Below, piece after piece: positions 1 to 30,814 of a stretch of DNA of 64,000 nucleotides. Position 1 is the first letter of the stretch, and each line of letters starts with the position of its first letter. Under the pieces are notes generated by a model. That model saw only the letters and a program-made list of their open reading frames with translations. It made no database searches and had not been told where the DNA came from. Origin of the DNA: an uncultured Bacilli bacterium (GTDB lineage Bacteria > Bacillota_I > Bacilli_A > RF39 > UBA660); assembly GCA_934096105.1 (NCBI GenBank), contig CAKOLH010000005.1, positions 1,094 through 65,093 on the forward strand, in the 5' to 3' direction. A program made the position numbers and the translations under genes.

Positions 1-552
1 AGTTGTTCTTTTGATATTAGTACATTTTATATTATATTTATTTAATTTTATTTGCTTTATATATGATAGTGCAAGTAAATCATTTGGTGTATCTACTTTT
101 ACATTTGTTATATCTTCGAGAGCTTTATTAGTACTAGTAGCATAATTTAAACCTTTACTTAAATAATGTTTTACTTTTTCTTGATATTCTTTATTATTTA
201 TTTGAATATCTGCGAGTAACTCTAAGTCCTCAATGGTATCTCTTTCAGTTCCAAATACTAGAGTATCTATATCTAGATAATTTAATATCTTTACTGCTCC
301 TTCTGCAAAGATATCTGAAGCCTGCGTAGAATAAACAAAAGGCAGTTCTATTACTAAATCTATACCATTATCTAATGCTATTTTAGTTTTATCCCATTTA
401 TTTAATAATGAAATATCTCCCCTTTGAGTAAATGAAGAAGATACTACTGAGATTAGTGTGCTATCTGGATATCTTTTTTTTATTTCTTTTATTTGATATA
501 AATGACCATTGTGAAATGGATTATATTCTGCGATTATACCAATTTTATGCAT
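1..552 (-). CDS. tmcAL: tRNA(Met) cytidine acetate ligase TmcAL (YlbM/UPF0348 family). This is the N-terminal part; the C-terminus lies beyond the window start.
   Basis: My own minus-strand translation from ATG (552-550) gives MHKIGIIAEYNPFHNGHLYQIKEIKKRYPDSTLISVVSSSFTQRGDISLLNKWDKTKIALDNGIDLVIELPFVYSTQASDIFAEGAV. It is collinear with B. subtilis YlbM, including the EYNPFHNGH motif. It is absent from the ORF track because it runs off the window. Confidence 0.8.
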   Translation of the reverse strand, partial: MHKIGIIAEYNPFHNGHLYQIKEIKKRYPDSTLISVVSSSFTQRGDISLLNKWDKTKIALDNGIDLVIELPFVYSTQASDIFAEGAVKILNYLDIDTLVFGTERDTIEDLELLADIQINNKEYQEKVKHYLSKGLNYATSTNKALEDITNVKVDTPNDLLALSYIKQIKLNKYNIKCTNIKRTT

Positions 553-603
553 AATTATCACCGGTTATATAATAACATATTTGAATAAATAATGCAAAGA
601 AAA

Positions 604-619
604 TATTTCTCGGGAAATA
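604..619. promoter_or_regulatory. Noc-binding-site-like palindrome (NBS1), TATTTCTCGGGAAATA
   Basis: Matches the B. subtilis NBS consensus tATTTCCCGGGAAATa at 15 of 16 positions. Lies in the divergent tmcAL/GT2 intergenic region. Confidence 0.55.
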
Positions 620-643
620 ATTTTAATTATGGTATATAGTTTT

Positions 644-730
644 GGCTTTTATATAATAGATTTTAAATTAAGACTTTATCAAAGGCTTAATTTAACACTC
701 TAAGACTACAGGCTTAGAGTGAACATAATA
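644..730 (+). repeat. Twin-hairpin intergenic repeat, copy A
   Basis: 5' box ggcttttatataatagat. Hairpin 1 at 665-693 (aaattaag/cttaattt). Hairpin 2 at 696-721 (cactctaag-actacagg-cttagagtg). 3' tail aacataata. Same architecture as copies C, D, E and F. Confidence 0.75.
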
Positions 731-737
731 GATGTGC

Positions 738-766
738 TTGTTTATTAATTTATTGTATGATATAAT
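738..766 (+). promoter_or_regulatory. Sigma-A-type promoter for the GT2 gene (TTGTTT-17 nt-TATAAT with an extended TG)
   Basis: -35 TTGTTT at 738-743, 17-nt spacer ending in tga, -10 TATAAT at 761-766. Lies about 30 nt upstream of the start codon at 796. Confidence 0.5.
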
Positions 767-795
767 ACACTTGTAATTTGAAGTGAGGTTGTTGT

Positions 796-2310
796 ATGTA
801 TTTAATGAATATTATAAGTTCGATAGGAGAACATTACTTATCTTGGAGACATGTATATAATGTCATTGGTAGTGTTTTAACTATATTGATGGCCTATAAA
901 ACTATTTATTGGCTTATTGGTTTATTCTTTACTAGGAAGTTTAAGCCAGCGAAGAAAAAACATAAATATGCTATTTTAATAGCGGCGAGAAATGAAAAGA
1001 ATGTTATTGGTAATTTACTTGATAGTATAAATAAGCAAGATTATCCAAGGGAACTTCTTACTACTTTTGTAGTTGCGGATAATTGTACTGATAATACTGC
1101 TGAAATTGCTAGAGAGCATGGGGCTGTCTGCTACGAAAGATTCGATAATGAACATAAAACTAAAGGGTTTGCTCTTCAGTATCTTCTAGAAAAAATAGGA
1201 GAAGACTATGGTAGAATGAGTTTTGAAGGATATTTTATATTTGACGCTGATAATCTTTTAAAGAATGATTATATTAGTAAAATGAATGATGCTTTTGATT
1301 CTGGAGAAAAGATTATTACTTCTTATCGAAATACTAAAAACTTTGATGAAAACTGGATAGCATCTACATATGCAATACATTGGATTAGATCTATTAGATG
1401 TAATCATAGAGCTAGGTCAGTACTTAGATTAGCTACGAATATACAAGGTACAGGATTTTTATTTACTAATGAGATTGTAAAAAATGGATGGCATTATACT
1501 TCTCTTACTGAAGATAGAGCACTTACTGCGGATGCTGTTGCTCAAGGATATAGAATATCTTATCAAGATGAGGCTATGTTTTATGATGAACAACCTACTA
1601 GTTTAAAAGTTGCTTTAAGGCAAAGAACTAGATGGTCTAAAGGACACCTACTTGCCTTTGTTGAATCTGGACCATATCTATTTATTAATATATTCTTTGG
1701 TAAATTATTTTTAAAAACTAGATGGCAGGAAAAGAAGAAGAAGAAAGAAAAGAAAACATTTAAAAGTGTTATGTTATCTATTGTAGAATCTATTAGACAC
1801 AGATTTGCTTCTTTTGATACTTTAATGCAACTTACGCCATTTTCAGTATTTAATCTTGCTAGATGGCTAATTGTTGTAGTTATTATGTATGGCTGCTACT
1901 GCTATAACATGGGAATTAATGGTAGTAATTTATTTAGTGGTAGTACTTATTTAGCAAAGGCTCTTAGAAGTTTATTTGAAATTAAGATAGTAGTTAACCC
2001 TGGTATTAATGCTTTCTTTGTAGGAATGCTTATTTCTATTTGGTTTAGACTTTTATATAGAATAGGTATGTATTTTCAAGATATGTGGATAGCAGTTTAT
2101 GTATTTATTATTGAAAGAAAAAATATTAAAAAGATTCCTTTTATGAAGAAAGTATTATATACTTTAACTTGGCCTACATTTGATATAATTGGTAGATATA
2201 GTACTTATGCTGCTTTATTTATGAAAGTTACTTGGAAGCCTATTCCTCATGATAGTAAAGTTACTATTGATGATATTCATAGTAATAAAGAAGAAAACTC
2301 TAATTCTTAA
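796..2310 (+). CDS. Family-2 glycosyltransferase, integral membrane type
   Basis: GT-A fold motifs: ILIAARNEKNVIGNLLDSINKQDYP, FVVADNCTDNT, FDADN, QGTGF and a QRTRWSKGH-type motif. One N-terminal TM segment and several C-terminal TM segments. RBS GTGAGG lies 7 nt upstream. Confidence 0.8.
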   Translation: MYLMNIISSIGEHYLSWRHVYNVIGSVLTILMAYKTIYWLIGLFFTRKFKPAKKKHKYAILIAARNEKNVIGNLLDSINKQDYPRELLTTFVVADNCTDNTAEIAREHGAVCYERFDNEHKTKGFALQYLLEKIGEDYGRMSFEGYFIFDADNLLKNDYISKMNDAFDSGEKIITSYRNTKNFDENWIASTYAIHWIRSIRCNHRARSVLRLATNIQGTGFLFTNEIVKNGWHYTSLTEDRALTADAVAQGYRISYQDEAMFYDEQPTSLKVALRQRTRWSKGHLLAFVESGPYLFINIFFGKLFLKTRWQEKKKKKEKKTFKSVMLSIVESIRHRFASFDTLMQLTPFSVFNLARWLIVVVIMYGCYCYNMGINGSNLFSGSTYLAKALRSLFEIKIVVNPGINAFFVGMLISIWFRLLYRIGMYFQDMWIAVYVFIIERKNIKKIPFMKKVLYTLTWPTFDIIGRYSTYAALFMKVTWKPIPHDSKVTIDDIHSNKEENSNS

Positions 2311-2322
2311 GAACTAGAGTTT

Positions 2323-4302
2323 TTATATTGTTTTATTTTGTCTTTCTTTTATTTGTTTAAAATAATTATATTTTAATGTTAAATCATTTTTCTTTATTAG
2401 ATAGTTTATATAATAGTTTTTATCTTCAAGTAATAAACTATCTATTTCTTTACCTTTAGTTATAACACCACCATCTACATAGATACTTCCATCATACCAA
2501 GAATAATCACTAAAGAATACTGAACCATGATAGTTATTATCTAAAGCATCAGTACCTATATAATAATTTGAATTATAATCTATTCCATATAGATTTAATA
2601 CTGTAGGTAGTACATTTAACTGTGATGTTACTTCTTTTATTGCTTTCTTATCTTTATTGTTATGCCATATAAAGAATGGGGTATGATTAATTAAGTTATT
2701 ATCTGTTTCTTTATATTTATCTAAGATTGTTTGATCTGATAATGTATATAGATAATGGTCTGTAAATACAACGATTGTTGTGTTATCTAATAAGTTTCTT
2801 TCTGTTAATTCATTTAATAATAATTCCATCATATAATCTGTTTCTTTTGCTTGTCTCCTAGCACAAGATTCTTCAGTCATTTCTGGATATACATAATCTT
2901 TTGGTAACTCCTCTAAGTTGTTTTCACTTAAGTAATCTAGTGTTAATAACTTTCTACAATTACCTTTTTCTGTTGTAAATGGCATATGATTAGTATAAGT
3001 TATGATATAATTAACAAATTTTTCATTTTCAAACATTTTTTCTTTGAATGTTTCATTTAATATTAATTCTCTATCTAAAACATAAGAATCATCTTTATAT
3101 GTTCCTAAATCTACTAGTCCATAATAATTATCATAGCCCCAGTTTTTATAGTTGACTCCTCGTGAATAGTATTCACTAGTATTCATATGAAAGGCATTAA
3201 CTGTGTATCCTTCGTTTTTGAATAGATGGGCTAATGAATATGGAAATGTATTTTTATTAAAAGTATAAGCATTTTGAGTATATGATAAAGGAGTTATAAA
3301 TCCTGTATTAACTGCAAACTCTGAGTTAAAGGTAGAGCCTCCTCCATTGTAATATGAATAATGATTAGTAAAGTTAATACTATTATTCATCATTTTATAT
3401 AATGTAGGAGTATCTTCTTCAGTAATTAACCAGTTATCTATTCCTTCAAGCTGTACTATTATTAAGTTATTATCTTTATATTTTCCTGTGTATTTGTTTG
3501 TCTCTTTTGTCTCCTCTTTATTATATTCTTCCTCAAGGAATGTTAAGTCTTCTTCATTAGTTGTCTTCTTGGCTTTAATAAATGTTACATAGAAATTTCT
3601 TACTGTATATTCGTATACTCCTGATACCATCATACTTTTATTATTATCATTAAAACTCATATATATATTTCTAGGATTTCTCCAGGTACTCCAAGTAAGT
3701 TCTTCATTTGGAGTACCTAATAGAAATGGTATTATAAAATGTAATATTAGAAAAGCAAAAAATACTTTTATTACGCTTTTTAATTTTGTTTTATTTCTAC
3801 TTGGATAAAATTTTAATCCTAAAATAAACGATCCTATTATTGGTACCATTAATATGTATACCCAAATATTACAATCTTTTATAGCATCTAGAAAATATTC
3901 AGAACCTTCTCCTGCAAGCAAAACCATACTAAAGTCAAAAAATGTACCAGTCATTGAGTAATATATATTATTTACTGTATATACTGCAAATGATAATATA
4001 AAGAAGATAATATATATTGTCTTTCCAATCTTTTTCTTATAAAATAGAGAAGCTCCTAATACAAAGAATATCCATGATAGAGTAAATAGTATTGGTACTA
4101 ATTTCATAATTCCATAGAAATGGATTTTATATCCTAATATTTTAGTAAATAAGTCTATTAATATAAATGGTAAGGCTAATATTAATATGTAATAGTATTT
4201 CTTTATTATATCTAATATCTTATTTAGTATCTTTTTTATATCTATATTTTTCTTTTTTATTTTATTATTTTTACTTTTAATCTTTTTTACTTCTTTTGAC
4301 AC
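2323..4302 (-). CDS. LTA synthase / sulfatase-family (alkaline phosphatase superfamily) membrane protein
   Basis: Five or so N-terminal TM helices followed by an extracellular sulfatase-like domain (LIIVQLEGIDNW, GGGSTFNSEFAVNTG, FTDHY). This is the typical LtaS-family architecture. Confidence 0.75.
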   Translation of the reverse strand: MSKEVKKIKSKNNKIKKKNIDIKKILNKILDIIKKYYYILILALPFILIDLFTKILGYKIHFYGIMKLVPILFTLSWIFFVLGASLFYKKKIGKTIYIIFFILSFAVYTVNNIYYSMTGTFFDFSMVLLAGEGSEYFLDAIKDCNIWVYILMVPIIGSFILGLKFYPSRNKTKLKSVIKVFFAFLILHFIIPFLLGTPNEELTWSTWRNPRNIYMSFNDNNKSMMVSGVYEYTVRNFYVTFIKAKKTTNEEDLTFLEEEYNKEETKETNKYTGKYKDNNLIIVQLEGIDNWLITEEDTPTLYKMMNNSINFTNHYSYYNGGGSTFNSEFAVNTGFITPLSYTQNAYTFNKNTFPYSLAHLFKNEGYTVNAFHMNTSEYYSRGVNYKNWGYDNYYGLVDLGTYKDDSYVLDRELILNETFKEKMFENEKFVNYIITYTNHMPFTTEKGNCRKLLTLDYLSENNLEELPKDYVYPEMTEESCARRQAKETDYMMELLLNELTERNLLDNTTIVVFTDHYLYTLSDQTILDKYKETDNNLINHTPFFIWHNNKDKKAIKEVTSQLNVLPTVLNLYGIDYNSNYYIGTDALDNNYHGSVFFSDYSWYDGSIYVDGGVITKGKEIDSLLLEDKNYYINYLIKKNDLTLKYNYFKQIKERQNKTI

Positions 4303-4370
4303 CTAAATCACCACTACTGAAATTATACTATAATATTGTTTTTTTGTAAATAATTTATATAATGTTAACA

Positions 4371-4460
4371 ATTACTAAGACTTTGGTTTAGTAATTTTTT
4401 TGAAGACCTGAGGCTTCAAAAACAGCGAGCAATGAAATGCGAGATGAAATAAATAAAAAA
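4371..4460 (+). repeat. Twin-hairpin intergenic repeat, copy B (subtype II)
   Basis: Hairpin 1 at 4371-4395 (attactaag-actttgg-tttagtaat). Hairpin 2 at 4397-4422 (tttttgaag-acctgagg-cttcaaaaa). The tail cagcgagcaatgaaatgcgagatgaaa is shared with copy G. Confidence 0.7.
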
Positions 4461-4526
4461 CTATTTTCTTTTTAATATTTATTTGGTATAATTTAGTTAT
4501 AATAGAGATAGAAGGAAGGGCTAGTT

Positions 4527-6287
4527 ATGTTTAAAGAAATTACCGCAATTAGTAAAAATTATGCTATTGTTAAAATTGATAATGTAATTAATGATGACTT
4601 ACTTAATTTAAATGTTATTTTTGAAGAAAATAATAAGAAGATATTAGGAGAAATTGAAGAAATAATTAATAGTGAGGCTAAAATTACTTTTTTAGGTGAA
4701 TTTATTAATGATAAGTTTTTTGATGGTATTATTAGAAAACCTAGTATTAATGCTAAAATAAGAATAATTAATGGTAATGAACTAGCAGAACTTACTGGCT
4801 ACAATGATAGTACGGCGATGATGCTTGGACTATCTCCTTTATATAATAATAGCCCTGTTAAAATTAATATTGATGATATGTGGAGTAATCATACCGCTAT
4901 ATTTGGTAATACTGGTAGTGGTAAAACATATGGGGTGGCTAGACTAGTACAAAATTTATTTACTATGCCTAACTATATTCCATTTAATAGTGTTATATTT
5001 ATATTTAATAATACTGATGAATATGATAATGCTTTTAAATCTATTAATAGTTATAATTTTAATTTTAATTACAAGATGTTTAGTACTGATACAGATAGTA
5101 ATAATAATATTTTAAAATTACCTTTATGGCTTATGTCAGTAGATGATTATGCTAATTTACTTGATGTTAGTGCTTATAGTCAAATTATGGTTATTGAAAA
5201 AATGCTTAATTATGTTTCTTTATTTGCAAGAAATGATGAAGAATCTAATAAGTATAAGAATCACTTAATTGCTACCGCTATTACATCTGTTCTTTATTCT
5301 AATCAGGTATCTGCGAGAATAAGAGACCAAATATTTTCTATTTTAACTAGTTGTAGTACTAAAGAACTTAACTTGGACGTTGATGTTCCTGGTGTTGGTT
5401 ATACGAGACAATTTAGAAAATGCTTTGAAATAGATAGTCAGGGACAATTTGCTGAAAGAGTTCTTATTACAGAATATATTAAGAAATTTATTGATAATGA
5501 TACTAAATGGAAAGAAGATTATACACCTGTATATTTTACTATTGATGATTTAGAGGAAGCACTTAATTTTACTTTAATATCTGAAGGAGTTCTTCTTAAT
5601 GAGAAATCTTATGCAGAAGGTACTGCTTTAAAAGTTAAATTACATAGTATTGCTAATAGTTCTTTGAGAAGTTATTTTGAAGTAGAAAAGTTTTGTACTA
5701 TTAATGAATTTATATCTGACTTAATACTAGTGGATGGTAATAAGAGAGCACAAATTATTAATTTTGTACTTGAAGGTATTGATGATAGATTTGCTAAAGC
5801 TTTAGTTAAAATTTATTCTAGAATATTCTTTAATTTTATGAAGAGTCTTCCTTCGAGGGGTTCTATGCCTATTAATATCATGCTTGAAGAGGCTCACAGA
5901 TATGTTCAAAAAGATATTGATAATGATATACTTGGATATAATATATTTGAAAGAATTGCTAAGGAAGGTAGAAAATTTGGTGTTATGATGGATTTAGTAA
6001 CACAAAGACCTACTGAATTATCTGAAACGGTATTATCACAATGTAGTAATTTCTTGATATTTAAAATTAATCATCCTGCTGACTTAGAATATATTGAAAA
6101 AATGGTACCAAACATTAGTAGTGATGTTTTAGAAAAGCAAAAATCACTTCAAGCAGGTACTTGTGTGGCTTTTGGTAAAATGATGAAGATACCTATGATT
6201 GTAAAAATGGAACTTCCTAATCCAGAACCACAGAGTTCAAATGCTCATGTATTTGACAAATGGATGATACAGTGGAAAACTAACTAA
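4527..6287 (+). CDS. HerA/FtsK-type P-loop ATPase (DUF87-like), orphan
   Basis: The N-terminal barrel-like region is followed by Walker A FGNTGSGKTY and Walker B-like INIMLEEAHRY. A conserved GRKFGV...QRP segment is typical of HerA-family ATPases. No nuclease partner gene is adjacent. Confidence 0.65.
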   Translation: MFKEITAISKNYAIVKIDNVINDDLLNLNVIFEENNKKILGEIEEIINSEAKITFLGEFINDKFFDGIIRKPSINAKIRIINGNELAELTGYNDSTAMMLGLSPLYNNSPVKINIDDMWSNHTAIFGNTGSGKTYGVARLVQNLFTMPNYIPFNSVIFIFNNTDEYDNAFKSINSYNFNFNYKMFSTDTDSNNNILKLPLWLMSVDDYANLLDVSAYSQIMVIEKMLNYVSLFARNDEESNKYKNHLIATAITSVLYSNQVSARIRDQIFSILTSCSTKELNLDVDVPGVGYTRQFRKCFEIDSQGQFAERVLITEYIKKFIDNDTKWKEDYTPVYFTIDDLEEALNFTLISEGVLLNEKSYAEGTALKVKLHSIANSSLRSYFEVEKFCTINEFISDLILVDGNKRAQIINFVLEGIDDRFAKALVKIYSRIFFNFMKSLPSRGSMPINIMLEEAHRYVQKDIDNDILGYNIFERIAKEGRKFGVMMDLVTQRPTELSETVLSQCSNFLIFKINHPADLEYIEKMVPNISSDVLEKQKSLQAGTCVAFGKMMKIPMIVKMELPNPEPQSSNAHVFDKWMIQWKTN

Positions 6288-6318: not shown

Positions 6319-6398
6319 TGTATCCACAATATCCACAGGGCTGTGGAAAAGTAAAGTAACACCTGTTAATAACAAAATTCGACAAAATTTGTGGATAA
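6319..6398. promoter_or_regulatory. oriC part 1: DnaA-box cluster upstream of dnaA
   Basis: gTATCCACA at 6320-6328 and aTATCCACA at 6329-6337. TGTGGAAAA at 6342-6350 is the reverse complement of TTTTCCACA. TGTGGATAA at 6390-6398 is a perfect reverse-strand TTATCCACA. AT-rich promoter DNA follows. Confidence 0.8.
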
Positions 6399-6550
6399 CC
6401 CTTTAAAACACATATTTTATATGGTATTATATTGTTGAAAAGATGTTTATAACTTGTTAATTTACATGTTTATTAAAATTTTGTACTAGACAAATTTAAA
6501 ATTTGTTATATAATAATGTTAATGGAATACTTAGTTAGGAGGTTTTGCGA

Positions 6551-7912
6551 ATGAATACAGAGATTATTTGGAACAATTTTCTTGAAAAAATTAAAGAGCG
6601 AATATCTCCTTTATCTTATGATACATGGTTTAAAGATACTAAGTTATATAAATTAGATAAGAACACTGCGATTATTATAGTTCCAATGATTTTACATAAA
6701 AAACATTTAGAAGAAAACTATTTAGATGAAATAGAAGAAATATTTAATTCAATTACAGGGACTAATTTTAATTTTCAATTTAAACTAGAAAATGAAATAA
6801 CGGAAGATACTTTAGAAGAAAAAATTATTGATGAAACAGAAAGTATTGGAGTTCCACATCAAACTAGTAGTTCCGCTAATCTAAATAGTGAATATACTTT
6901 TGATAGTTTCATAGTAGGTGATTCTAATAGATTTGCTTTTACTGCGGCGAGAGCTGTGGCTGAAAAACCAGGTAAGGCTTATAATCCTTTGTTTCTGTAT
7001 GGAAAAAGTGGACTTGGTAAAACTCATTTGATGCACGCTATTGGTAATTATATATTAGAAAATTCTAATAAAAAAGTACTTTATGTATCTAGTGAGCAGT
7101 TTGTAAACGATTATATTTATGCTGTTAGAAACAACGAAAAAAATAGTTTTGATAGAATTGATTCTTTTAAAAATAAATATCGTAATATTGATGTACTAAT
7201 AATTGATGATATTCAGTTTCTAGGTAGTGCCACTAAAGGGCAGGAGGAATTTTTCCATACCTTTAATGAATTACATGACTCTAATAAACAGATAATTATA
7301 GCCTCTGATAGATCGGTAGATGACCTGAAAATGCTGGAAAATAGGTTAATTACTAGATTTAACTGGGGACTTACCGCGAATATAACACCACCTGATTTTA
7401 ATTTAAGAGTAGATATTATTAAAAAGAAAATATCACATCAAGAGGCGGCGGAAGATATACCAATTGAAGTTATTGAGTATATAGCAAATATTAATGATTC
7501 AGATGTTAGGCAGTTAGAAGGCGCTATTACAAGAGTATTTGCATATGCCTCAATGATGAATAGAGGTATAATTAATCTTGATATTGCTATTGAAGCTCTC
7601 AAAGATAAGGTATCTGAAAAAAGTGTATATAAAAATGATGTTCATAGGATACAAAGAATAGTATGTGAATACTTTAAAATAGATATTGAGGACTTAAAAG
7701 GTAAAAAAAGAAGTAAAGATGTCAATTATCCTAGACAAATAGCCATTTATTTATGTAGAAAGATGACTAGTGAGTCATTTCCAAAGATGGGAACATATTT
7801 TGGTGGTAGAGACCATTCCACAATTATCAGTGCATATCAAAGAATAGAGAATGATTTAAAGACAAATCCACAGCTTCAAATAGTAATAAATGAACTAAAA
7901 GAAAAAATATAG
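6551..7912 (+). CDS. dnaA: Chromosomal replication initiator DnaA
   Basis: AAA+ Walker A GKSGLGKTHL, LIIDDIQF, and a C-terminal DNA-binding domain (GGRDHSTIISAYQRI). AGGAGG lies 8-9 nt upstream of ATG 6551. The ORF-track TTG at 6545 is too close to the RBS. Confidence 0.95.
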   Translation: MNTEIIWNNFLEKIKERISPLSYDTWFKDTKLYKLDKNTAIIIVPMILHKKHLEENYLDEIEEIFNSITGTNFNFQFKLENEITEDTLEEKIIDETESIGVPHQTSSSANLNSEYTFDSFIVGDSNRFAFTAARAVAEKPGKAYNPLFLYGKSGLGKTHLMHAIGNYILENSNKKVLYVSSEQFVNDYIYAVRNNEKNSFDRIDSFKNKYRNIDVLIIDDIQFLGSATKGQEEFFHTFNELHDSNKQIIIASDRSVDDLKMLENRLITRFNWGLTANITPPDFNLRVDIIKKKISHQEAAEDIPIEVIEYIANINDSDVRQLEGAITRVFAYASMMNRGIINLDIAIEALKDKVSEKSVYKNDVHRIQRIVCEYFKIDIEDLKGKKRSKDVNYPRQIAIYLCRKMTSESFPKMGTYFGGRDHSTIISAYQRIENDLKTNPQLQIVINELKEKI

Positions 7913-8030
7913 TGGATAAAAACAAAGATATCAACAGGTTTTGTTGATAAAGAAAAGTATATAAAACAAGAAAAAAATAAAGATATCAACAATATCAACA
8001 GTATAATAATAATAATTATATAATAAAAGA
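7911..8030. promoter_or_regulatory. oriC part 2 (incC-like): DnaA boxes plus a TAA-trinucleotide run and AT-rich DNA between dnaA and dnaN
   Basis: AGTGGATAA at 7911-7919, ATATCAACA at 7928-7936, TGTTGATAA at 7942-7950, and tandem ATATCAACA at 7983-7991 and 7992-8000. These are followed by TAA x4 at 8004-8015 and then pure A/T up to the dnaN RBS. Confidence 0.7.
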
Positions 8031-9181: not shown

Positions 9182-9208
9182 TACTCTCATTAGGAGAGTT
9201 TTTTTTTG
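9182..9208 (+). terminator. Rho-independent terminator after dnaN
   Basis: Stem actctc/gagagt followed by T9. Confidence 0.75.
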
Positions 9209-9227
9209 TCCACAATTATGTGGATAT
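9206..9227. promoter_or_regulatory. Inverted pair of DnaA-box-like 9-mers
   Basis: TTGTCCACA at 9206-9214. TGTGGATAT at 9219-9227 is the reverse complement of ATATCCACA. Confidence 0.5.
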
Positions 9228-9470: not shown

Positions 9471-9932
9471 ATGAGAGATTATGTTATTAATGAAGAACTT
9501 TTATGTTTTACCCAAGATACTATAGAAAAAGATAATGTTTTGGTTATAGAAAAGTCTAAAAGATTAACTTTTAAAGGTAATTCACTAAAGTTTTTACGAA
9601 GATGTTGTTTCTGCTACGGACATTCTTATAATATTCAGAGACAATTTGTAATAGACCATTTTAATTATTATATTAAAACTCCTATTATACTATCTGAGTA
9701 CAATAAAATAATATTATTTCCTACAGCATCACCAGAATCTAATAAATGTATTTGGCTTTCTTATAATAATATTGAAAGATATGTAGAGGCTGAAAAAAAC
9801 TATACAGAAATTTATTTTAAAGGTGGAAAAGTATTAAAAATCAGAGCTCCATATACTACTATTGACAACCAAATTACTAAGTGTATCAAGATAGAAAAAT
9901 TACTTAATAGTCTACAATATACTGAAATGTAA
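9471..9932 (+). CDS. ComK-family protein (competence transcription factor-like)
   Basis: Aligns by eye with the B. subtilis ComK core: CCFCYGHSYNIQR vs CRFFGSSYAGRK; KTPIILSEYNKIILFPTASPESNKCIWLS vs KPPIMVDPSNQIFLFPTLSSTRPQCGWIS; and TEIYFKGGKVLKI...DNQITK vs TEVTFSNGKTMEL...ENQVYR. Has a strong RBS (AAGGGGG). Confidence 0.6.
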   Translation: MRDYVINEELLCFTQDTIEKDNVLVIEKSKRLTFKGNSLKFLRRCCFCYGHSYNIQRQFVIDHFNYYIKTPIILSEYNKIILFPTASPESNKCIWLSYNNIERYVEAEKNYTEIYFKGGKVLKIRAPYTTIDNQITKCIKIEKLLNSLQYTEM

Positions 9933-13129: not shown

Positions 13130-15739
13130 ATGGAAAATGAAAATATAAAAAATGATAATAATGATATTAATGAACTTGTTGATAGAGCAATGAATGATAT
13201 TAATCAAACCGATAAAAATGAAGAGACTAAAGATGAAACTGCTGAAAATTCTGAAATAGAAGAGGATAATTTTAATGGTGATTTTCATGAAAAGGATAGT
13301 AGTACTGCTAATGACATTGTTTCTGAGGTTAAGGATTCATTTATTGACTATTCTATGAGTGTTATTACATCAAGGGCTATTCCTGACCTTAGAGACGGAT
13401 TAAAGCCTGTTCACAGAAGAATTTTATGGTCTATGTATGAAGAAGGTAATACACCTGATAAACCTCATAAAAAATCTGCAACTACTGTTGGTTATGTTAT
13501 GGGACATTATCATCCTCATGGTGATAGTTCTATATATGAAGCAATGGTTCGTTTGGCACAAGACTTTAACGAAAGATATATGTTAGTTGATGGTCATGGT
13601 AATTTTGGTAATATTGAGGGTGATGGAGCTGCTGCATATCGTTACACAGAAGCAAGATTATCTAAAATTTCTCTTGAACTTATTAGAGATATTAATAAAA
13701 ACACTGTTGATATGGATGATAATTTTGATGAGACTAGTAAAGAACCAAGAGTATTACCAAGTAGATTTCCTAATATATTAGTAAATGGTTCAATGGGTAT
13801 AGCTGTTGGTATGGCCACAAATATTCCTCCTCATAATTTAGGTGAAGTAATTGATGGTTGTGTTGCATATATTGATAATCATGATATAGATACTTTGGAA
13901 CTTATGGAGTACGTTAAAGGGCCTGATTTTCCTACTGGTGGTATTATACTTGGTAATTCAGGTATAAAAAAGGCATATGAAACTGGTAGAGGATCTATTA
14001 CTATTCGTAGTAGAGCTGAAATAGAGGAACACAATAATCATAATACTATTGTTATTACTGAGGTTCCTTATGGTGTAAACACGATGGAACTTAAGAATAA
14101 AGTTGCTGAACTTGTTAGAGATAAAGTAATTGATGGTATATCTGATTATCATACTGACTTAAAGGATGGGGTTAAAATAACTATTACTTTAAAGAGAGAT
14201 GCTAATCCACAAGTTGTACTTAATAATTTATATAAACATACTAATTTTCAAATTTCTTATGGTATTATATTTTTAATGCTTGATCAAGGAGTTCCTAAAA
14301 CTTTAGGATTAAAGGATATTATTTCTAAATATATTGATCATCAAAAGGAAGTTATTATCAGAAGAACTAGATTTGATTTAGATAAAGATGAGAGAAGAGT
14401 TCATATTTTAGAGGGTTATAAGATAGCACAAGATAATATTGATGAAGTTATTAAAATAATAAAGACCGCTAAAAGTGATGTTGAGGCTAAGGAAAAATTG
14501 ATGAGTCGATTTGCTTTATCTGAAATTCAAACTGATGCTATATTAGAATTGAAATTACGTCGTTTGACTGGAATGGAAAGAGAGAAGATTGAGGCTGAAC
14601 TTGCTGATTTACTTCTTGAAATAGAGGAATTGAAGTCTATTCTTGCTTCTGAAGAAAAAGTTCTTAATATAATTAAGAAGGAATTATTAGATATTAAGAG
14701 TAGGTATGCTGATGAAAGAAGAACTCATATTGATATGACTGCTGTTGAATATATTGAAGATGAAAGTTTAATTCCTGAAGATAAGGTTGTTATTACTTTA
14801 ACTAAGAAGGGTTATATTAAGAGATTATCTGCTTCTACTTATAAAACACAACATAGAGGTGGTGTTGGTATTAAGGGTATGTCTACTAATGAGGAAGACT
14901 TTGTCGAACAAATTCTTAACTGTTCTACTCATGATTATGTCTTATTCTTTACTAATATGGGTAAGGTTTATAGAGTTAAGGGTTATAAAATTCCTGAATA
15001 TAGTAGACAATCTAAGGGATTACCTATTATTAATTTACTTAACTTAGAACAGGGTGAGTATGTTACTGCATTGCTTAATGGCTCTAATGATAGTGAAGAT
15101 AAGTATTTGATATTTGCTACTAAAAGTGGATTGATTAAGAGAACTGATTTGGCTGAATTTTATAATATTAGAACTAATGGTAAGAGATTTATTACTTTGA
15201 GAGATGATGATGAACTTATTTCTGTTAAGGGTACTACTGGTGATAATGATATATTAATGGCTTCTTCTAATGGTAGAATGGTAAGATTTAATGAAAACTC
15301 TATTAGAGTTATGGGAAGAGGCGCTTCTGGTGTTAGAGGTATTAATTTAGATGGTGGTTTCCTTGTTGGTATGGAAGTTGTTAAACCTAATGAAGATGTT
15401 CTTGTTATTAGTGAATATGGTTATGGTAAAAAGACTCCTATTGAAGAATATAGAATAACTAATAGAGGCGGTAAGGGTGTTAAGACTATTAATATTACTG
15501 AGAAGAATGGTTCTATTGTTTCCTTTAAGACTGTTACTGATGATAAGGACTTGATAATTATCACTGATACTGGTATGATTATTAGATTAGCTGTTGATAA
15601 GATTTCTAGAATGAGTAGGGTTACTCAAGGCGTAAGACTTATTAATCTTAAGGATGAGACTAAGGTTAGTGGAACTGCTATTGTTGATAAGGACGATGAA
15701 GAACAGGTTTTAGAAGATATTAATTCAAAGAGTGAGTAA
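13130..15739 (+). CDS. gyrA: DNA gyrase subunit A, with an N-terminal acidic extension of about 55 aa
   Basis: RAIPDLRDGLKPVHRR, HPHGD and AAAYRYTEARL (active-site Tyr), plus a C-terminal beta-pinwheel. A strong RBS (AGGAGG) precedes ATG 13130. Confidence 0.95.
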   Translation: MENENIKNDNNDINELVDRAMNDINQTDKNEETKDETAENSEIEEDNFNGDFHEKDSSTANDIVSEVKDSFIDYSMSVITSRAIPDLRDGLKPVHRRILWSMYEEGNTPDKPHKKSATTVGYVMGHYHPHGDSSIYEAMVRLAQDFNERYMLVDGHGNFGNIEGDGAAAYRYTEARLSKISLELIRDINKNTVDMDDNFDETSKEPRVLPSRFPNILVNGSMGIAVGMATNIPPHNLGEVIDGCVAYIDNHDIDTLELMEYVKGPDFPTGGIILGNSGIKKAYETGRGSITIRSRAEIEEHNNHNTIVITEVPYGVNTMELKNKVAELVRDKVIDGISDYHTDLKDGVKITITLKRDANPQVVLNNLYKHTNFQISYGIIFLMLDQGVPKTLGLKDIISKYIDHQKEVIIRRTRFDLDKDERRVHILEGYKIAQDNIDEVIKIIKTAKSDVEAKEKLMSRFALSEIQTDAILELKLRRLTGMEREKIEAELADLLLEIEELKSILASEEKVLNIIKKELLDIKSRYADERRTHIDMTAVEYIEDESLIPEDKVVITLTKKGYIKRLSASTYKTQHRGGVGIKGMSTNEEDFVEQILNCSTHDYVLFFTNMGKVYRVKGYKIPEYSRQSKGLPIINLLNLEQGEYVTALLNGSNDSEDKYLIFATKSGLIKRTDLAEFYNIRTNGKRFITLRDDDELISVKGTTGDNDILMASSNGRMVRFNENSIRVMGRGASGVRGINLDGGFLVGMEVVKPNEDVLVISEYGYGKKTPIEEYRITNRGGKGVKTINITEKNGSIVSFKTVTDDKDLIIITDTGMIIRLAVDKISRMSRVTQGVRLINLKDETKVSGTAIVDKDDEEQVLEDINSKSE

Positions 15740-15761
15740 GAGTAATTATTTACTCTTTTTT
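15740..15761 (+). terminator. Rho-independent terminator after gyrA
   Basis: Stem gagtaa/ttactc followed by T6. Confidence 0.7.
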
Positions 15762-15772
15762 GTTATGTATAT

Positions 15773-15788
15773 TATTTCTCGGGAAATA
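15773..15788. promoter_or_regulatory. Noc-binding-site-like palindrome (NBS3), TATTTCTCGGGAAATA
   Basis: Identical to NBS1 (15/16 to consensus). Intergenic, about 190 bp upstream of the first parS. Confidence 0.55.
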
Positions 15789-15889
15789 ATTATTATTAGA
15801 TAAGATAAAATATCTGAGATAGCAAACAAATGTTTGCTATCTCGGATTGCTTACTAAACTTGTATTTTTTGTAGAAATATGATATAGTG

Positions 15890-15970
15890 TTGTTGATACA
15901 ACATTAATGGTGGAATCAAGTCAGGGGCGGAAGCCAGCAGCTTTAACATTTAATTAATGTGTGTATCTTT
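15890..15970 (+). ncRNA. ffs: Signal recognition particle RNA, short (4.5S-like) type
   Basis: Domain IV core GUCAGGGGC-GGAA-GCCAGCAGC at 15920-15941. It carries the conserved UCAGG / AGCA loops around a GGAA tetraloop. The core is closed by a long helix (GATACA-ACATTAAT ... ATTAATGT-GTGTATC) and followed by a T-run (15968-15975). The exact ends are approximate. Confidence 0.8.
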
Positions 15971-15975
15971 TTTTT

Positions 15976-17104
15976 ATGTTCCACGTGAAACATAAATATT
16001 AACTACTTTATTATTAGAAATATATCTACTATGTTATTATTATTATTTTAACTTTTGTTAATAATATATAATATAAAACCGAATATTAAAAGTTTTGTTT
16101 TTTATGAAATTTATTTATATTTTTCATTATTATTATTTTATAACTTATGTTCCACGTGAAACGTAAGTTTTCCACAGATTATTTATAATGACAAAAAGTA
16201 ATTACTTAAGTTTATCTTTTGATTTTAATATATACATTAATAAGTAAGACATCTTACTTATTTTAATATTTATTAATATAACGTTTCATGTGGAACGTAA
16301 ATATCCACAGTTTTACTGGTTAGTATATATCTTTGTAAAACATATTATTTAGTGTTATTCATATTCTATTATATATTTGATTATTTAAATTTTACCTTAC
16401 GCTTTTTTAACTATTATCATTTTAACAATGATAGTAATGTTCCACGTGGAACATGAGTTTTCCACAACTTTTGTATATAACCTTATTGTATCGTGTATTT
16501 TACATTTTTAATTATGTCCTCTTTTTATAAAAAAGAGTGAATTATATCATTAATTTTGATTAAAATTAATATTTTTATTGTTTTAATTTATTTATGTTTC
16601 ACGTGAAACATAAATATCAACAGTTTTTTATTTAAATGTATATATAAAAATATAATTATTGTTAAAAATCTATTTGATATTATTATTAATGTACTATTTT
16701 AACCTAAAAAATAAAATTATTACATTTTTAAACTCATTCTTTTATAATTAATTATATTTTTTGATAAATATAGTAATGTTTCACGTGAAACATGAGTTTT
16801 CCACAATTTTTTGTATAGATTTATTTTATTATGCATTGCGTTTATTTATTTTAATGTATTTTTTATAAAAAAGAGTGAATTATATCATTAATTCTAATTA
16901 AAATTGGTATTTTTATTGCTTTAAATTGATTTATGTTTCACGTGAAACTTTAACATCAACAGTTTCTATGATTGAAGCAGATATATATAATACGATTATA
17001 ATTAGAGTTATTTTGAATGTTATTATAAATATTATTATTTAATTTTCAAATTTGTGTTTTACTAATTAATTTTACTAAAAAAACTGATGTTCCACGTGAA
17101 ACAT
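15976..17104 (+). repeat. Array of eight parS (ParB/Spo0J centromere) sites; six are fused to a DnaA-box-like 9-mer
   Basis: The 18-mers are: 15976-15993 atgttccacgtgaaacat; 16147-16164 atgttccacgtgaaacgt; 16281-16298 acgtttcatgtggaacgt (degenerate); 16437-16454 atgttccacgtggaacat; 16594-16611 atgtttcacgtgaaacat; 16776-16793 atgtttcacgtgaaacat; 16933-16950 atgtttcacgtgaaactt; 17087-17104 atgttccacgtgaaacat. The consensus equals parS, TGTTNCACGTGAAACA. The downstream 9-mers are TTTTCCACA at 16168, 16458 and 16797; ATATCCACA at 16301; ATATCAACA at 16614; and ACATCAACA at 16953. Confidence 0.85.
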
Positions 17105-17196
17105 CAATTTTTTATTCATATGTTGATATGTAAAAAATTTATTATTATTTATTTTTCTGATATACTTGTTGATAGAGATTGGAGTTGGCCTATATT

Positions 17197-17622
17197 ATGG
17201 TAGAAAAATATATGAAAATGGCACTTTCAGAGGCTAAAAAGGCTTATTGTAAAGATGAGATTCCTGTTGGATGTGTTATTGTGTATAAAAATGAGGTTAT
17301 TGCCTGTGGATATAATGAAAAAGAGAGTAAAAATAGTGCAATTAGGCATGCTGAAATAGTAGCTATTGAAAATGCCTGTGGAAAACTCGAAACATGGCAC
17401 TTGGATGAATGTGTTCTTTATGTTACTTTAGAGCCTTGTATGATGTGTTTAGGTGCTATTATTGAGGCTAGAATTAAAAATGTTTATTTTGGAGCAAAAA
17501 ACAGTAACGAACAAATGTATGATAAAATTAAAGTTAAAAGCTTTGTAAATCTAACTTTTGTTAACAATGAAGCATGTTCTAAAATTTTATCTGATTTTTT
17601 TGTAAATAAAAGAAAAAAATGA
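17197..17622 (+). CDS. tadA: tRNA adenosine(34) deaminase TadA
   Basis: CDA zinc motifs HAEIVAIE and LEPCMMCLGA. The start was moved to ATG 17197 (MVEKYMKMALSEAKKA), which aligns with TadA N-termini. The ORF-track TTG is at 17179. Confidence 0.9.
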   Translation: MVEKYMKMALSEAKKAYCKDEIPVGCVIVYKNEVIACGYNEKESKNSAIRHAEIVAIENACGKLETWHLDECVLYVTLEPCMMCLGAIIEARIKNVYFGAKNSNEQMYDKIKVKSFVNLTFVNNEACSKILSDFFVNKRKK

Positions 17623-28571: not shown

Positions 28572-28790
28572 TGTAAAGCGAAGAAGGAAAGAGTATTAGT
28601 AATATTTATAGAGAGTCTATGTTTGGTGGAAATAGATAAGAAAAGCTATTATAAATGGTTCTGGAGCAGTTATATCTAATAGGTATAAACGGTTGTTACG
28701 TTATAACTTAATGAGTGTATATATTATAAAATAAGGTGGTACCGCGGAATATTTTTCGTCCTTTGGTTAGCCTTATTTTTTTATTTTATG
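28572..28790 (+). promoter_or_regulatory. T-box riboswitch leader, probable Met specifier (AUG at 28655-28657)
   Basis: Stem I start AAAGCGAAGAAGGAAAGAGTA, AGAGAG box and distal GGTGGAAA. The candidate specifier is ataaATGg. The conserved T-box sequence AAATAAGGTGGTACCGCGG lies at 28729-28747. A terminator-like helix (ATAAGG...CCTTAT) with T7 lies at about 28731-28783. The downstream operon contains metG. Confidence 0.8.
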
Positions 28791-28800
28791 GAGGTATGTA

Positions 28801-30814
<2,014 letters not shown>

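Follow-up and report, generated by a model that had tools for sequence, protein, structure and literature searches.

A parS array between gyrA and tadA

The window analyzed here, a 64-kb stretch of contig CAKOLH010000005.1 from an uncultured Bacilli bacterium, contains an array of parS palindromes in the spacer between gyrA and tadA, most of them accompanied by a 9-mer that resembles a DnaA box. The upstream anchor of the array is gyrA (13130–15739, + strand), an 869-aa open reading frame (ORF) whose product falls in a protein cluster carrying the names 'DNA gyrase subunit A [Clostridium sp. CAG:302]' and 'Bacilli bacterium'; contigs of this species, whose lineage is probably GTDB order RF39, derive from human-gut metagenomes. 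A gene for the small signal recognition particle (SRP) RNA follows (15885–15982, + strand; Rfam RF00169, 54 bits versus a gathering score of 40), and it shares its 3′-terminal 6 nt with the first parS. The downstream boundary is tadA (17198–17622, + strand; Pfam MafB19-deam and dCMP_cyt_deam_1), which encodes tRNA adenosine deaminase and is predicted as a 141-aa protein in further assemblies from this species. No ORF of at least 40 aa is present in the gyrA–tadA spacer (15740–17178), and Rfam at a permissive threshold gave no match in the array except the SRP RNA. An earlier note, made from the letters of this sequence, had described the array as gene-free. This is true only from position 15983 onward, because the SRP RNA ends at 15982, inside the first parS.

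We searched the window for TGTTNCACGTGNAACA, allowing up to two mismatches and using 100 shuffles as background. Seven strong sites were found, compared to 0.08 expected, and none of the 100 shuffles attained seven. Five of them match without mismatch: parS 1 (15977–15992; TGTTCCACGTGAAACA), parS 4 (16438–16453; TGTTCCACGTGGAACA), parS 5 (16595–16610; the perfect palindrome TGTTTCACGTGAAACA), parS 6 (16777–16792; likewise a perfect palindrome) and parS 8 (17088–17103; TGTTCCACGTGAAACA). One mismatch each is seen in parS 2 (16148–16163; TGTTCCACGTGAAACG) and parS 7 (16934–16949; TGTTTCACGTGAAACT), and a degenerate eighth site, parS 3 (16282–16297; CGTTTCATGTGGAACG), has three. The eight palindromes listed in the earlier note were thus recovered at the same positions. 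Variation among the sites is confined to the two Ns in the consensus of canonical ParB.

The array extends over ∼1.1 kb (15977–17103), with start-to-start distances of 171, 134, 156, 157, 182, 157 and 154 bp, and occupies the AT-richest kilobase of the window (16001–17000; GC 0.178). The rest of the window contains no further parS, with nothing closer than three mismatches to TGTTNCACGTGNAACA. The sites are origin-proximal, lying 9.4–10.6 kb from the start of dnaA (6545–7912), which is flanked by DnaA-box clusters (6320–8000). The spacer is, in other words, a dedicated non-coding parS island next to oriC.

DnaA-box-like 9-mers adjacent to parS

Each of parS 2 to 7 is followed, 3–4 bp past the 16-mer and always on the + strand, by a 9-mer related to the DnaA box TTATCCACA. 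The sequence TTTTCCACA is found at 16168–16176, 16458–16466 and 16797–16805, each time with a gap of 4 bp; the gap is 3 bp for ATATCCACA at 16301–16309, ATATCAACA at 16614–16622 and the weak ACATCAACA at 16953–16961. Four of the six differ from TTATCCACA at one position, one differs at two, and ACATCAACA differs at three. Positions, strand and gap are all as reported in the earlier note. Past the last parS and ahead of tadA (17121–17175), the − strand has two further 9-mers of this kind, namely ATATCAACA at 17121, which is conserved in the related locus L092, and CTATCAACA at 17167. Within the first 190 bp of tadA there are three more with one mismatch (TTATACACA, ATATCCACA and TTTTCCACA; 17280–17385, − strand), which may be due to chance or coding constraint.

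The reference repertoire for this genome comes from the two clusters flanking dnaA. The oriC-left cluster (6320–6398) contains GTATCCACA, ATATCCACA, TTTTCCACA and TTATCCACA, and the dnaA–dnaN cluster (7911–8000) contains TTATCCACT, three copies of ATATCAACA, and TTATCAACA. Several array variants recur there, as the earlier note had also observed: TTTTCCACA at 6342 (− strand), ATATCCACA at 6329, and ATATCAACA at 7928, 7983 and 7992.

The exact parS plus 9-mer composite occurs five times in the window, compared to 0 expected, and all five copies are inside the array. We also compared box counts (a box being a 9-mer with at most one mismatch) to those obtained by first-order Markov resampling of the array spacers. 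Observed and expected counts are 4 and 0.29 for the window, 3 and 0.11 for L092, and 5 and 0.12 for another relative, L088. When 21 units from three species were stacked, information content was seen to run rightward from parS, from position +16 to ∼+29, and to fall to background beyond that point; leftward of parS, constraint is limited to positions −1 and −3. The array boxes are 133–183 bp apart, well beyond the close packing associated with cooperative DnaA binding. They are a set of isolated boxes, not a classical DnaA-box cluster.

Unit structure and turnover of the array

The earlier note had treated the eight sites as equal units. Repeat analysis instead places them in two alternating types, type A (TTTATGTTyCACGTGAAACATAAATATCMACAG; starting at 15976, 16281, 16594 and 16933, and containing parS 1, 3, 5 and 7) and type B (TAATGTTyCACGTGrAACATGAGTTTTCCACA; starting at 16147, 16437, 16776 and 17087, and containing parS 2, 4, 6 and 8), so that the array consists of four A+B dimers with a period of ∼305–340 bp. 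Outside the motifs, only the latest two dimers are alike (76% identity over 121 nt). Tandem Repeats Finder detected no array that spans the island or has the period of the parS unit, only five short local repeats. What looks like a 'tandem repeat' is a series of palindromes scattered among spacers that have diverged.

Among independent metagenome assemblies of this species, some have an 8-site and others a 7-site form of the array (window 16595–16777; L002, L004, L006). Relative to the 8-site form, the 7-site form is missing precisely the 182-bp segment that separates two identical perfect palindromes (16595 and 16777), parS 5 marking one end of the deletion, which is as expected from recombination between parS copies. 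It could reflect such recombination or, alternatively, assembly collapse. We take the array to evolve by gain and loss, through duplication and deletion, of an A+B dimer unit of ∼310–340 bp.

Conservation of the array and its boxes

A scan of one genome per species yielded ∼50 low-GC relatives (GyrA identity 59–81%), and we counted parS sites with at most one mismatch within 2.5 kb past gyrA in those relatives with at least 1.5 kb of sequence there. All 36 of these relatives have two or more sites (range 2–9, median 4.5), and in the low-GC relatives the array is always directly downstream of gyrA. Hence, the array is not unusual within its lineage. It is ancient, and its position has been kept across the whole low-GC 'CAG-302 / Bacilli bacterium' lineage. 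Clostridia from the same scan have no array past gyrA, and two of them (L057, L085) have 5–6 parS sites in ∼230 bp just upstream of soj–spo0J.

The earlier note had likened the array to plasmid centromeres and considered it atypical for a firmicute chromosome. This view is overstated, because dense non-coding clusters are also found in Clostridia and because tight clustering of parS is the common bacterial state, scattered sites being peculiar to a few lineages that include Bacilli (PMC8357415). A dense non-coding array is the rule in this lineage, as the 36 relatives indicate, and is not unknown elsewhere in Bacillota. We also considered an iterated centromere of the plasmid type (F sopC, P1 parS Box A/Box B, type Ib/II) and rejected it: the period varies (134–182 bp), no par genes are nearby, the spacers are unrelated save for the latest duplication, and Tandem Repeats Finder reports no array of parS units.

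Closer relatives were obtained through GyrA homologs. Their gyrA identity to the window at four-fold sites is 89% for L092, 71% for L088 and 61% for L090. In three sister loci (L092, L088 and L097) the SRP RNA adjoins the first parS just as it does in the window. Intergenic DNA of the window and L088 can be aligned only at part of the SRP RNA and at parS-centered cores of 30–60 bp. Five of the seven parS sites in L088 are nonetheless followed by TTATCAACA at a gap of 3. At the orthologous type-B position, the window and L092 have TTTTCCACA and L088 has TTATCAACA, a difference of two substitutions, and each of these sequences is one mismatch from TTATCCACA. L097 (GyrA identity 84%) has ATATCCACA at a gap of 5, and L090 (83%) has an array without boxes. 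Retention of the box through this degree of divergence appears to reflect selection rather than shared descent.

Many parS palindromes in these loci exceed 16 bp. Among 209 unique sites (from the window, L007–L055, L088, L090 and L092), the mean extension is 2.78 bp, compared to 1.53 bp (sd 0.06) when flanks are randomly re-paired. Extensions of at least 4 bp are seen in 57 of the 209, with covarying flanks (caa/ttg, taa/tta, ata/tat), and position −1/+1 is A/T in 94%. Some parS sites lie directly past the gyrA stop codon and are followed by T-runs, an arrangement that resembles a terminator. Selection for a hairpin or cruciform and a mutational mechanism are candidate causes of the long palindromes.

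Pairing of parS and DnaA box in other lineages

In an unbiased set of 45 arrays, boxes total 33, compared to 6.4 expected, and are concentrated in the genus of the window, L015/L016, L043, L032 and L037. Considering only boxes (at most one mismatch) that lie 0–6 nt from parS, we counted 24 half-flanks at nine loci. The corresponding counts for 300 permuted motifs of the same composition average 0.64, with a maximum of 10.

The geometry of the pairing differs among lineages. In the genus of the window, the box is on the right side of parS, pointing outward, with a gap of 3–5. In L015/L016 it is again on the right, but inverted, with a gap of 1–3. It abuts parS on the left side in L037, L032 and L050, and is on the left and inverted in L043. 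Outside the genus, then, gaps are 0–3, on either side and in either orientation. The 3–4 bp gap, which the earlier note regarded as hard-wired, is therefore genus-specific: it holds in the genus-level clade (as a gap of 3–5) and is not universal. This variety of geometries argues against a stereospecific ParB–DnaA complex and favors an effect of proximity.

Array boxes match the oriC boxes of the lineage in which they reside. In L015, both TTATCAACA and the unusual TTATTAACA are present in oriC and in the array, and the same is true of TTATTCACA and TTATCCACA in L037 and L032. That array boxes mirror the variants of their own oriC is expected if one protein reads both sets of sites.

We additionally scanned metagenomes for parS followed within 0–6 bp by a perfect TTATCCACA and retrieved at least 120 stretches. 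One caveat here is that these were selected for the pairing and lack a denominator, and hence they serve as a source of examples and provide no measure of enrichment. Among the matches listed are gyrA-downstream arrays with several composites each (L117, L135, L138, L165, L171 and L179). Outside this lineage, the matches listed also include composites <1 kb upstream of soj–spo0J, on contigs of 40–62% GC (L108, L121, L123, L126, L131, L132, L154 and similar); a family of contigs of 56–60% GC (L100, L106, L109, L114, L151, L172 and L174) in which a 5-bp gap is kept and the gap sequence varies; and one symmetric box–parS–box palindrome (L167, 1676–1711).

The array 9-mers are best read as candidate DnaA boxes because their variants are shared with oriC, because sister species retain them although the spacers have turned over, and because they are strongly enriched relative both to shuffles and to permuted motifs. 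The description of the 9-mers as DnaA-box-like in the earlier note is supported on the same grounds.

ParB-family genes and Noc-binding sites

We searched the window and all loci by tblastn, using B. subtilis Spo0J and Soj sequences together with the Noc-type protein of the lineage. No ParB, Noc or Soj homolog was detectable in the window, in agreement with the earlier note, which had seen no parA, parB or noc gene there. Neither soj–spo0J nor a canonical parB of the R173/G201 class was found in the lineage, for which ∼20–70 kb per genome was inspected. What was found is a Noc-type gene of the ParB family (L029 1209–2681; L093 2501–3517, which equals L099 10001–11017; protein P0268). A homolog search from the L029 ORF and the 20 kb around P0268 yielded only this Noc-type gene, with none tied to the species of the window.

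The encoded protein is 338–490 aa in total and has a long acidic linker of low complexity. Its helix-turn-helix reads LGISQSSVANKVRLLNLP...ISERHARSL. The best NCBIfam match is the Noc model, with 300 bits (cut-off 315), and the generic ParB domain scores 186 bits. It may lack the N-terminal membrane-targeting helix of B. subtilis Noc. When the protein is aligned to the published specificity positions, its residues are Q173, K179 and R201 (GISQ...ANK...ERHAR), the pattern of binding to the Noc-binding site (NBS). In the Caulobacter ParB scaffold, R173 was invariable among parS-specific variants and required (PMC7383237).

Sites resembling the NBS (ATTTCCCGGGAAAT) are present in the window, one perfect and three with one mismatch (605, 11155, 15774 and 18812), compared to 0.12 expected. 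The site at 15774–15787 (ATTTCTCGGGAAAT; one mismatch) lies ∼200 bp before the first parS, and its ortholog is a perfect NBS in L092, L088 and L095. Taking all loci together, there are 1.06 NBSs per kb in arrays (±250 bp) versus 0.044 per kb elsewhere, a difference of ∼24-fold. In L018 (12550–13387) and L027 (12711–13534), each unit contains one parS and one NBS, which alternate with a 117–118-bp period, and the unit of L165 (2564–3038) is made up of a DnaA box, parS and NBS. parS and NBS are discrete classes of site, with very few hybrids. The most economical predicted reader of parS is a canonical ParB, because the only variable positions of parS are the two Ns of the consensus and because parS and NBS stay discrete.

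Sequence surrounding the island and the origin

Past the gyrA stop codon and before the SRP RNA gene is an inverted repeat (15812–15847) with 17-bp arms that are 94% complementary and separated by 2 nt. Its hairpin scores as terminator-like on the minus strand, with 12 pairs (15816–15843), and it is probably the gyrA terminator. A transcriptional role for the array itself has no support, promoter-like sites being unenriched (16 observed versus 18.1 expected).

Upstream of dnaA (window 1–6287) are genes for a glycosyltransferase, an LtaS-like sulfatase and an HerA/FtsK-like ATPase; the canonical rpmH–rnpA–...–rsmG–noc block is not present in this interval. The region varies among strains, with a transposase, thyA, DHFR and thymidylate kinase in L095 (1–10000) and a T4SS coupling protein, polA and fpg in L096 (1–10000), which suggests rearrangement or mobile DNA at the origin. 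A ComK-family gene between dnaN and recF (9471–9932) is kept in relatives. Ahead of this gene, two 9-mers resembling DnaA boxes form an inverted pair (TTGTCCACA and ATATCCACA; 9206–9227), and L087 has a perfect TTATCCACA at the equivalent position. Farther downstream, a T-box leader (28572–28766; Rfam RF00230, 101.7 bits) precedes ORFs at 28801–30814, the second of which is called as a class I aminoacyl-tRNA synthetase gene in L001.

A probable origin-proximal centromere with DnaA boxes

The best overall explanation of these data, and one that we hold to be reasonably probable, is that the gyrA–tadA spacer contains a conserved, origin-proximal centromere of the chromosome with DnaA-box coupling. 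Its parts differ in strength. That the island is a ParB loading platform is a prediction we make with considerable confidence, and the 9-mers are probably functional DnaA sites. That DnaA and ParB modulate each other in cis at the island is speculative, and we put it forward tentatively. Loading of ParB and SMC, titration of DnaA and crosstalk between Soj and DnaA, which the earlier note had put forward, are candidate roles. Sequence, conservation, enrichment and the match between array and oriC variants are observations; from them we infer all protein binding, as well as the direction of any coupling.

In molecular terms, a CTP clamp of the ParB type would load on the eight iterated palindromes. 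DnaA would bind the box that accompanies each internal parS, on the origin-distal side and 3–5 bp away in the genus-level clade, and the island would then double as an origin-proximal set of DnaA boxes interleaved 1:1 with ParB loading sites. DnaA bound 3–4 bp from parS would hinder loading of ParB or one-sided escape of the clamp. Alternatively, or in addition, loading and sliding of ParB would dislodge DnaA from a reservoir that titrates it. In both cases, free DnaA, and with it initiation potential, would be coupled in cis to centromere assembly. Other bacteria achieve such coupling in trans, by way of ParA/Soj. We favor interference by proximity because the two sites lie 0–5 bp apart in any orientation.

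Several observations weigh against a centromere with DnaA coupling. About 30 of the 45 arrays, including that of L090, have no box at all, suggesting that the box is dispensable or optional for array function. Within the window, parS 1 and parS 8 remain perfect and their neighboring 9-mers have decayed (to ATATTAACT in the case of parS 1). Box quality is modest, with one box at three mismatches, one at two, and none identical to TTATCCACA; the most frequent 9-mer, TTTTCCACA, is ambiguous, being only two mismatches from the parS left arm TGTTCCACG. At 133–183 bp, the boxes are too far apart to support the kind of cooperative DnaA oligomer that is typical of oriC and DnaA-box clusters. The units share ancestry and may undergo gene conversion, and hence counts within an array are not independent events. 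No parB was found in the window, in the 5.5 kb upstream of it, or within 10 kb on either side of gyrA in low-GC relatives. The sole ParB-family gene seen in those relatives is the Noc-type gene, located after mnmG–rsmG (L029, L093/L099), and no soj–spo0J follows it in L029 or L099.

Alternative explanations

It is conceivable, although we think it rather unlikely, that the spacer is a genuine ParB centromere in which the 9-mers are mere passengers of an ancestral A+B unit, kept similar by duplication or gene conversion, with DnaA irrelevant. Growth of the array by duplication of the A/B dimer, as seen in the resemblance of the last two dimers, fits this explanation, as do the recombinational 182-bp deletion that distinguishes strains, the loss of boxes from the terminal units, and the fact that most relatives function without boxes. 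Passengers would, however, not be expected to persist across 29% divergence at four-fold sites (L088), where the spacers can no longer be aligned, nor to accept substitutions only among DnaA-box variants (TTTTCCACA to TTATCAACA). Moreover, conservation stops abruptly past the 9-mer, and unrelated lineages have evolved the same pairing in other geometries, each with the variants of its own oriC.

A second alternative concerns the protein rather than the site. If soj–spo0J has been lost, parS and NBS might both be bound by a Noc-type paralog or another ParB-family protein of altered or dual specificity. The only ParB-family gene seen, after rsmG, is indeed of the Q173/K179/R201 type with Noc as its best NCBIfam match, it is not followed by soj–spo0J in L029 or L099, and NBSs are 24-fold enriched near arrays and alternate 1:1 with parS in L018 and L027. 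We nevertheless consider this improbable. With ∼20–70 kb per genome inspected, parB may lie elsewhere. Binding to parS required R173 in the Caulobacter scaffold (PMC7383237), the two site classes are as discrete as expected for two proteins, and the pattern of variation, at the two Ns of the consensus, agrees with a canonical ParB.

Less probable still is that the 9-mer is a third, partial half-site for ParB or a second centromere element, comparable to Box A/Box B of P1 parS or to half-parS in Pseudomonas. The resemblance of TTTTCCACA to the left arm TGTTCCACG would fit, as would the hairpin that it can form with the parS right arm (16446–16465), and in P. aeruginosa ParB is reported to bind half-parS heptamers (PMC10419367). 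But type-A boxes (ATATCMACA) and all L088 boxes (TTATCAACA) are 4–5 mismatches from half-parS and 1–2 from the DnaA box, and for these boxes we reject the half-site explanation. In addition, the neighbor of parS in other lineages is a perfect TGTGGATAA, and variants track the oriC of each genome.

Finally, the region could in principle be mainly a DnaA element (a titration locus like datA or the DnaA-box clusters of B. subtilis, or an auxiliary origin module) with parS secondary, and it does have six same-strand and two inverted boxes before tadA, in the AT-richest kilobase of the window (GC 0.178) and near oriC, but we regard this as highly improbable, parS being universal (36 of 36 relatives) and boxes occurring in about one in four unbiased arrays (roughly 10–15 of 45), >130 bp apart. 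We reject a second origin on account of the excessive distance between boxes and the presence of canonical oriC clusters on both sides of dnaA (6320–8000).

Implications

A centromere with DnaA boxes in cis would be of interest because coupling of replication and segregation is understood mainly via trans contacts between ParA/Soj and DnaA in a few model species. This locus and dozens of related arrays offer a purely cis arrangement, in which initiator and centromere sites are a few bp apart. The pair is repeated up to six times per array and arose repeatedly, in different geometries, in a lineage where no ParA has been seen. It provides a testable hypothesis, in which loading of ParB and binding of DnaA, at distances of 0–5 bp, are mutually exclusive, obstruct one another or assist one another. 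The generalization that Bacilli have scattered parS sites fails for a large uncultured gut lineage, and Noc sites can concentrate at the centromere there.

A broader and doubtful version of this idea is that the island is a modular landing pad, in which parS is combined with a DnaA box (in the genus of the window and several others), a Noc site (L018, L027), or the two together (L165). In these gut Bacilli, which have small genomes and seemingly no soj–spo0J at its canonical locus, cis coupling could take the place of the trans circuit of ParA/Soj and DnaA. In such a landing pad, DnaA beside parS would gate loading or escape of the ParB clamp, or ParB loading would release titrated DnaA. If true, a single locus would govern segregation, the timing of initiation and nucleoid occlusion. 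In a stronger form, parS could be read by a non-canonical member of the ParB family.

Comparison with known systems

In the literature searched, which does not cover all journals, we found no description of an iterated 1:1 array of parS and DnaA box, of the gyrA-downstream array of this lineage, or of NBSs concentrated at a centromere. The earlier note knew of no described parS plus DnaA-box unit; binding of DnaA at a centromere has a precedent in Caulobacter (PMC6399470). Most of that note's interpretation stands, but it needs correcting on three points: the fixed gap is confined to the genus, arrays of this kind are normal in the lineage, and DnaA at a centromere was already known.

The closest counterparts of the island are the clustered chromosomal ParB–parS centromeres of Caulobacter and Corynebacterium glutamicum, the latter with a 10-site cluster (PMC8357415, PMC7083940, PMC5815017). 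They have in common the canonical TGTTNCACGTGNAACA and several origin-proximal copies in one tight cluster. By analogy, the island is expected to nucleate ParB–CTP clamps and load SMC. Unlike these clusters, it packs eight sites into 1.1 kb of purely non-coding DNA, a much higher density, and lies downstream of gyrA with no parAB found nearby, in a class (Bacilli) where scattered parS sites are deemed typical (PMC8357415). Noc and the NBS of Bacillota (PMC7383237, PMC4331003, PMC5540599) have counterparts in this lineage as well, namely a perfect ATTTCCCGGGAAAT and a Noc-type gene after rsmG. NBSs are scattered genome-wide in B. subtilis, whereas here they are concentrated in and near the parS array, and some relatives have one NBS for every parS, in alternation.

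Extra-origin DnaA boxes that restrain initiation from positions near oriC are known from the DnaA-box clusters (DBCs) of B. subtilis and from E. coli datA. In B. subtilis, loss of the origin-proximal DBCs is synergistic with loss of Spo0J (PMC3245932). DBCs are dense clusters of boxes apart from parS; in the island, single boxes are ∼155 bp apart and each is tied to one parS.

Adjacent sites for an initiator and a centromere-binding protein have been described on secondary replicons. On V. cholerae chromosome II, ParB2 loaded at parS2-B spreads over the adjacent inhibitory site, the rctA 39-mer, and displaces the initiator (PMC3688505). This too is a centromere site next to an initiator-binding site, coupling segregation and initiation. 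The differences from the island are that the initiator is RctB rather than DnaA, that the site is single, and that the replicon is plasmid-derived. In Deinococcus radiodurans, the direct-repeat arrays cisII and cisMP bind both DnaA and ParB (PMC7671480). In contrast to the island, these belong to secondary replicons, lie upstream of parAB, consist of non-canonical repeats, and act as origin plus centromere.

The most direct parallel for a cis link between initiator and chromosomal centromere is in Caulobacter crescentus, where, according to a review (PMC6399470, reviewing Mera, Kalogeraki and Shapiro 2014), DnaA binds boxes within the parS region and uses the same domain IV at centromere and origin. 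The island likewise has putative DnaA boxes inside its parS region. It differs in that the putative box is iterated 1:1 with parS at a gap of 3–5 bp, in another phylum and with no ParA seen.

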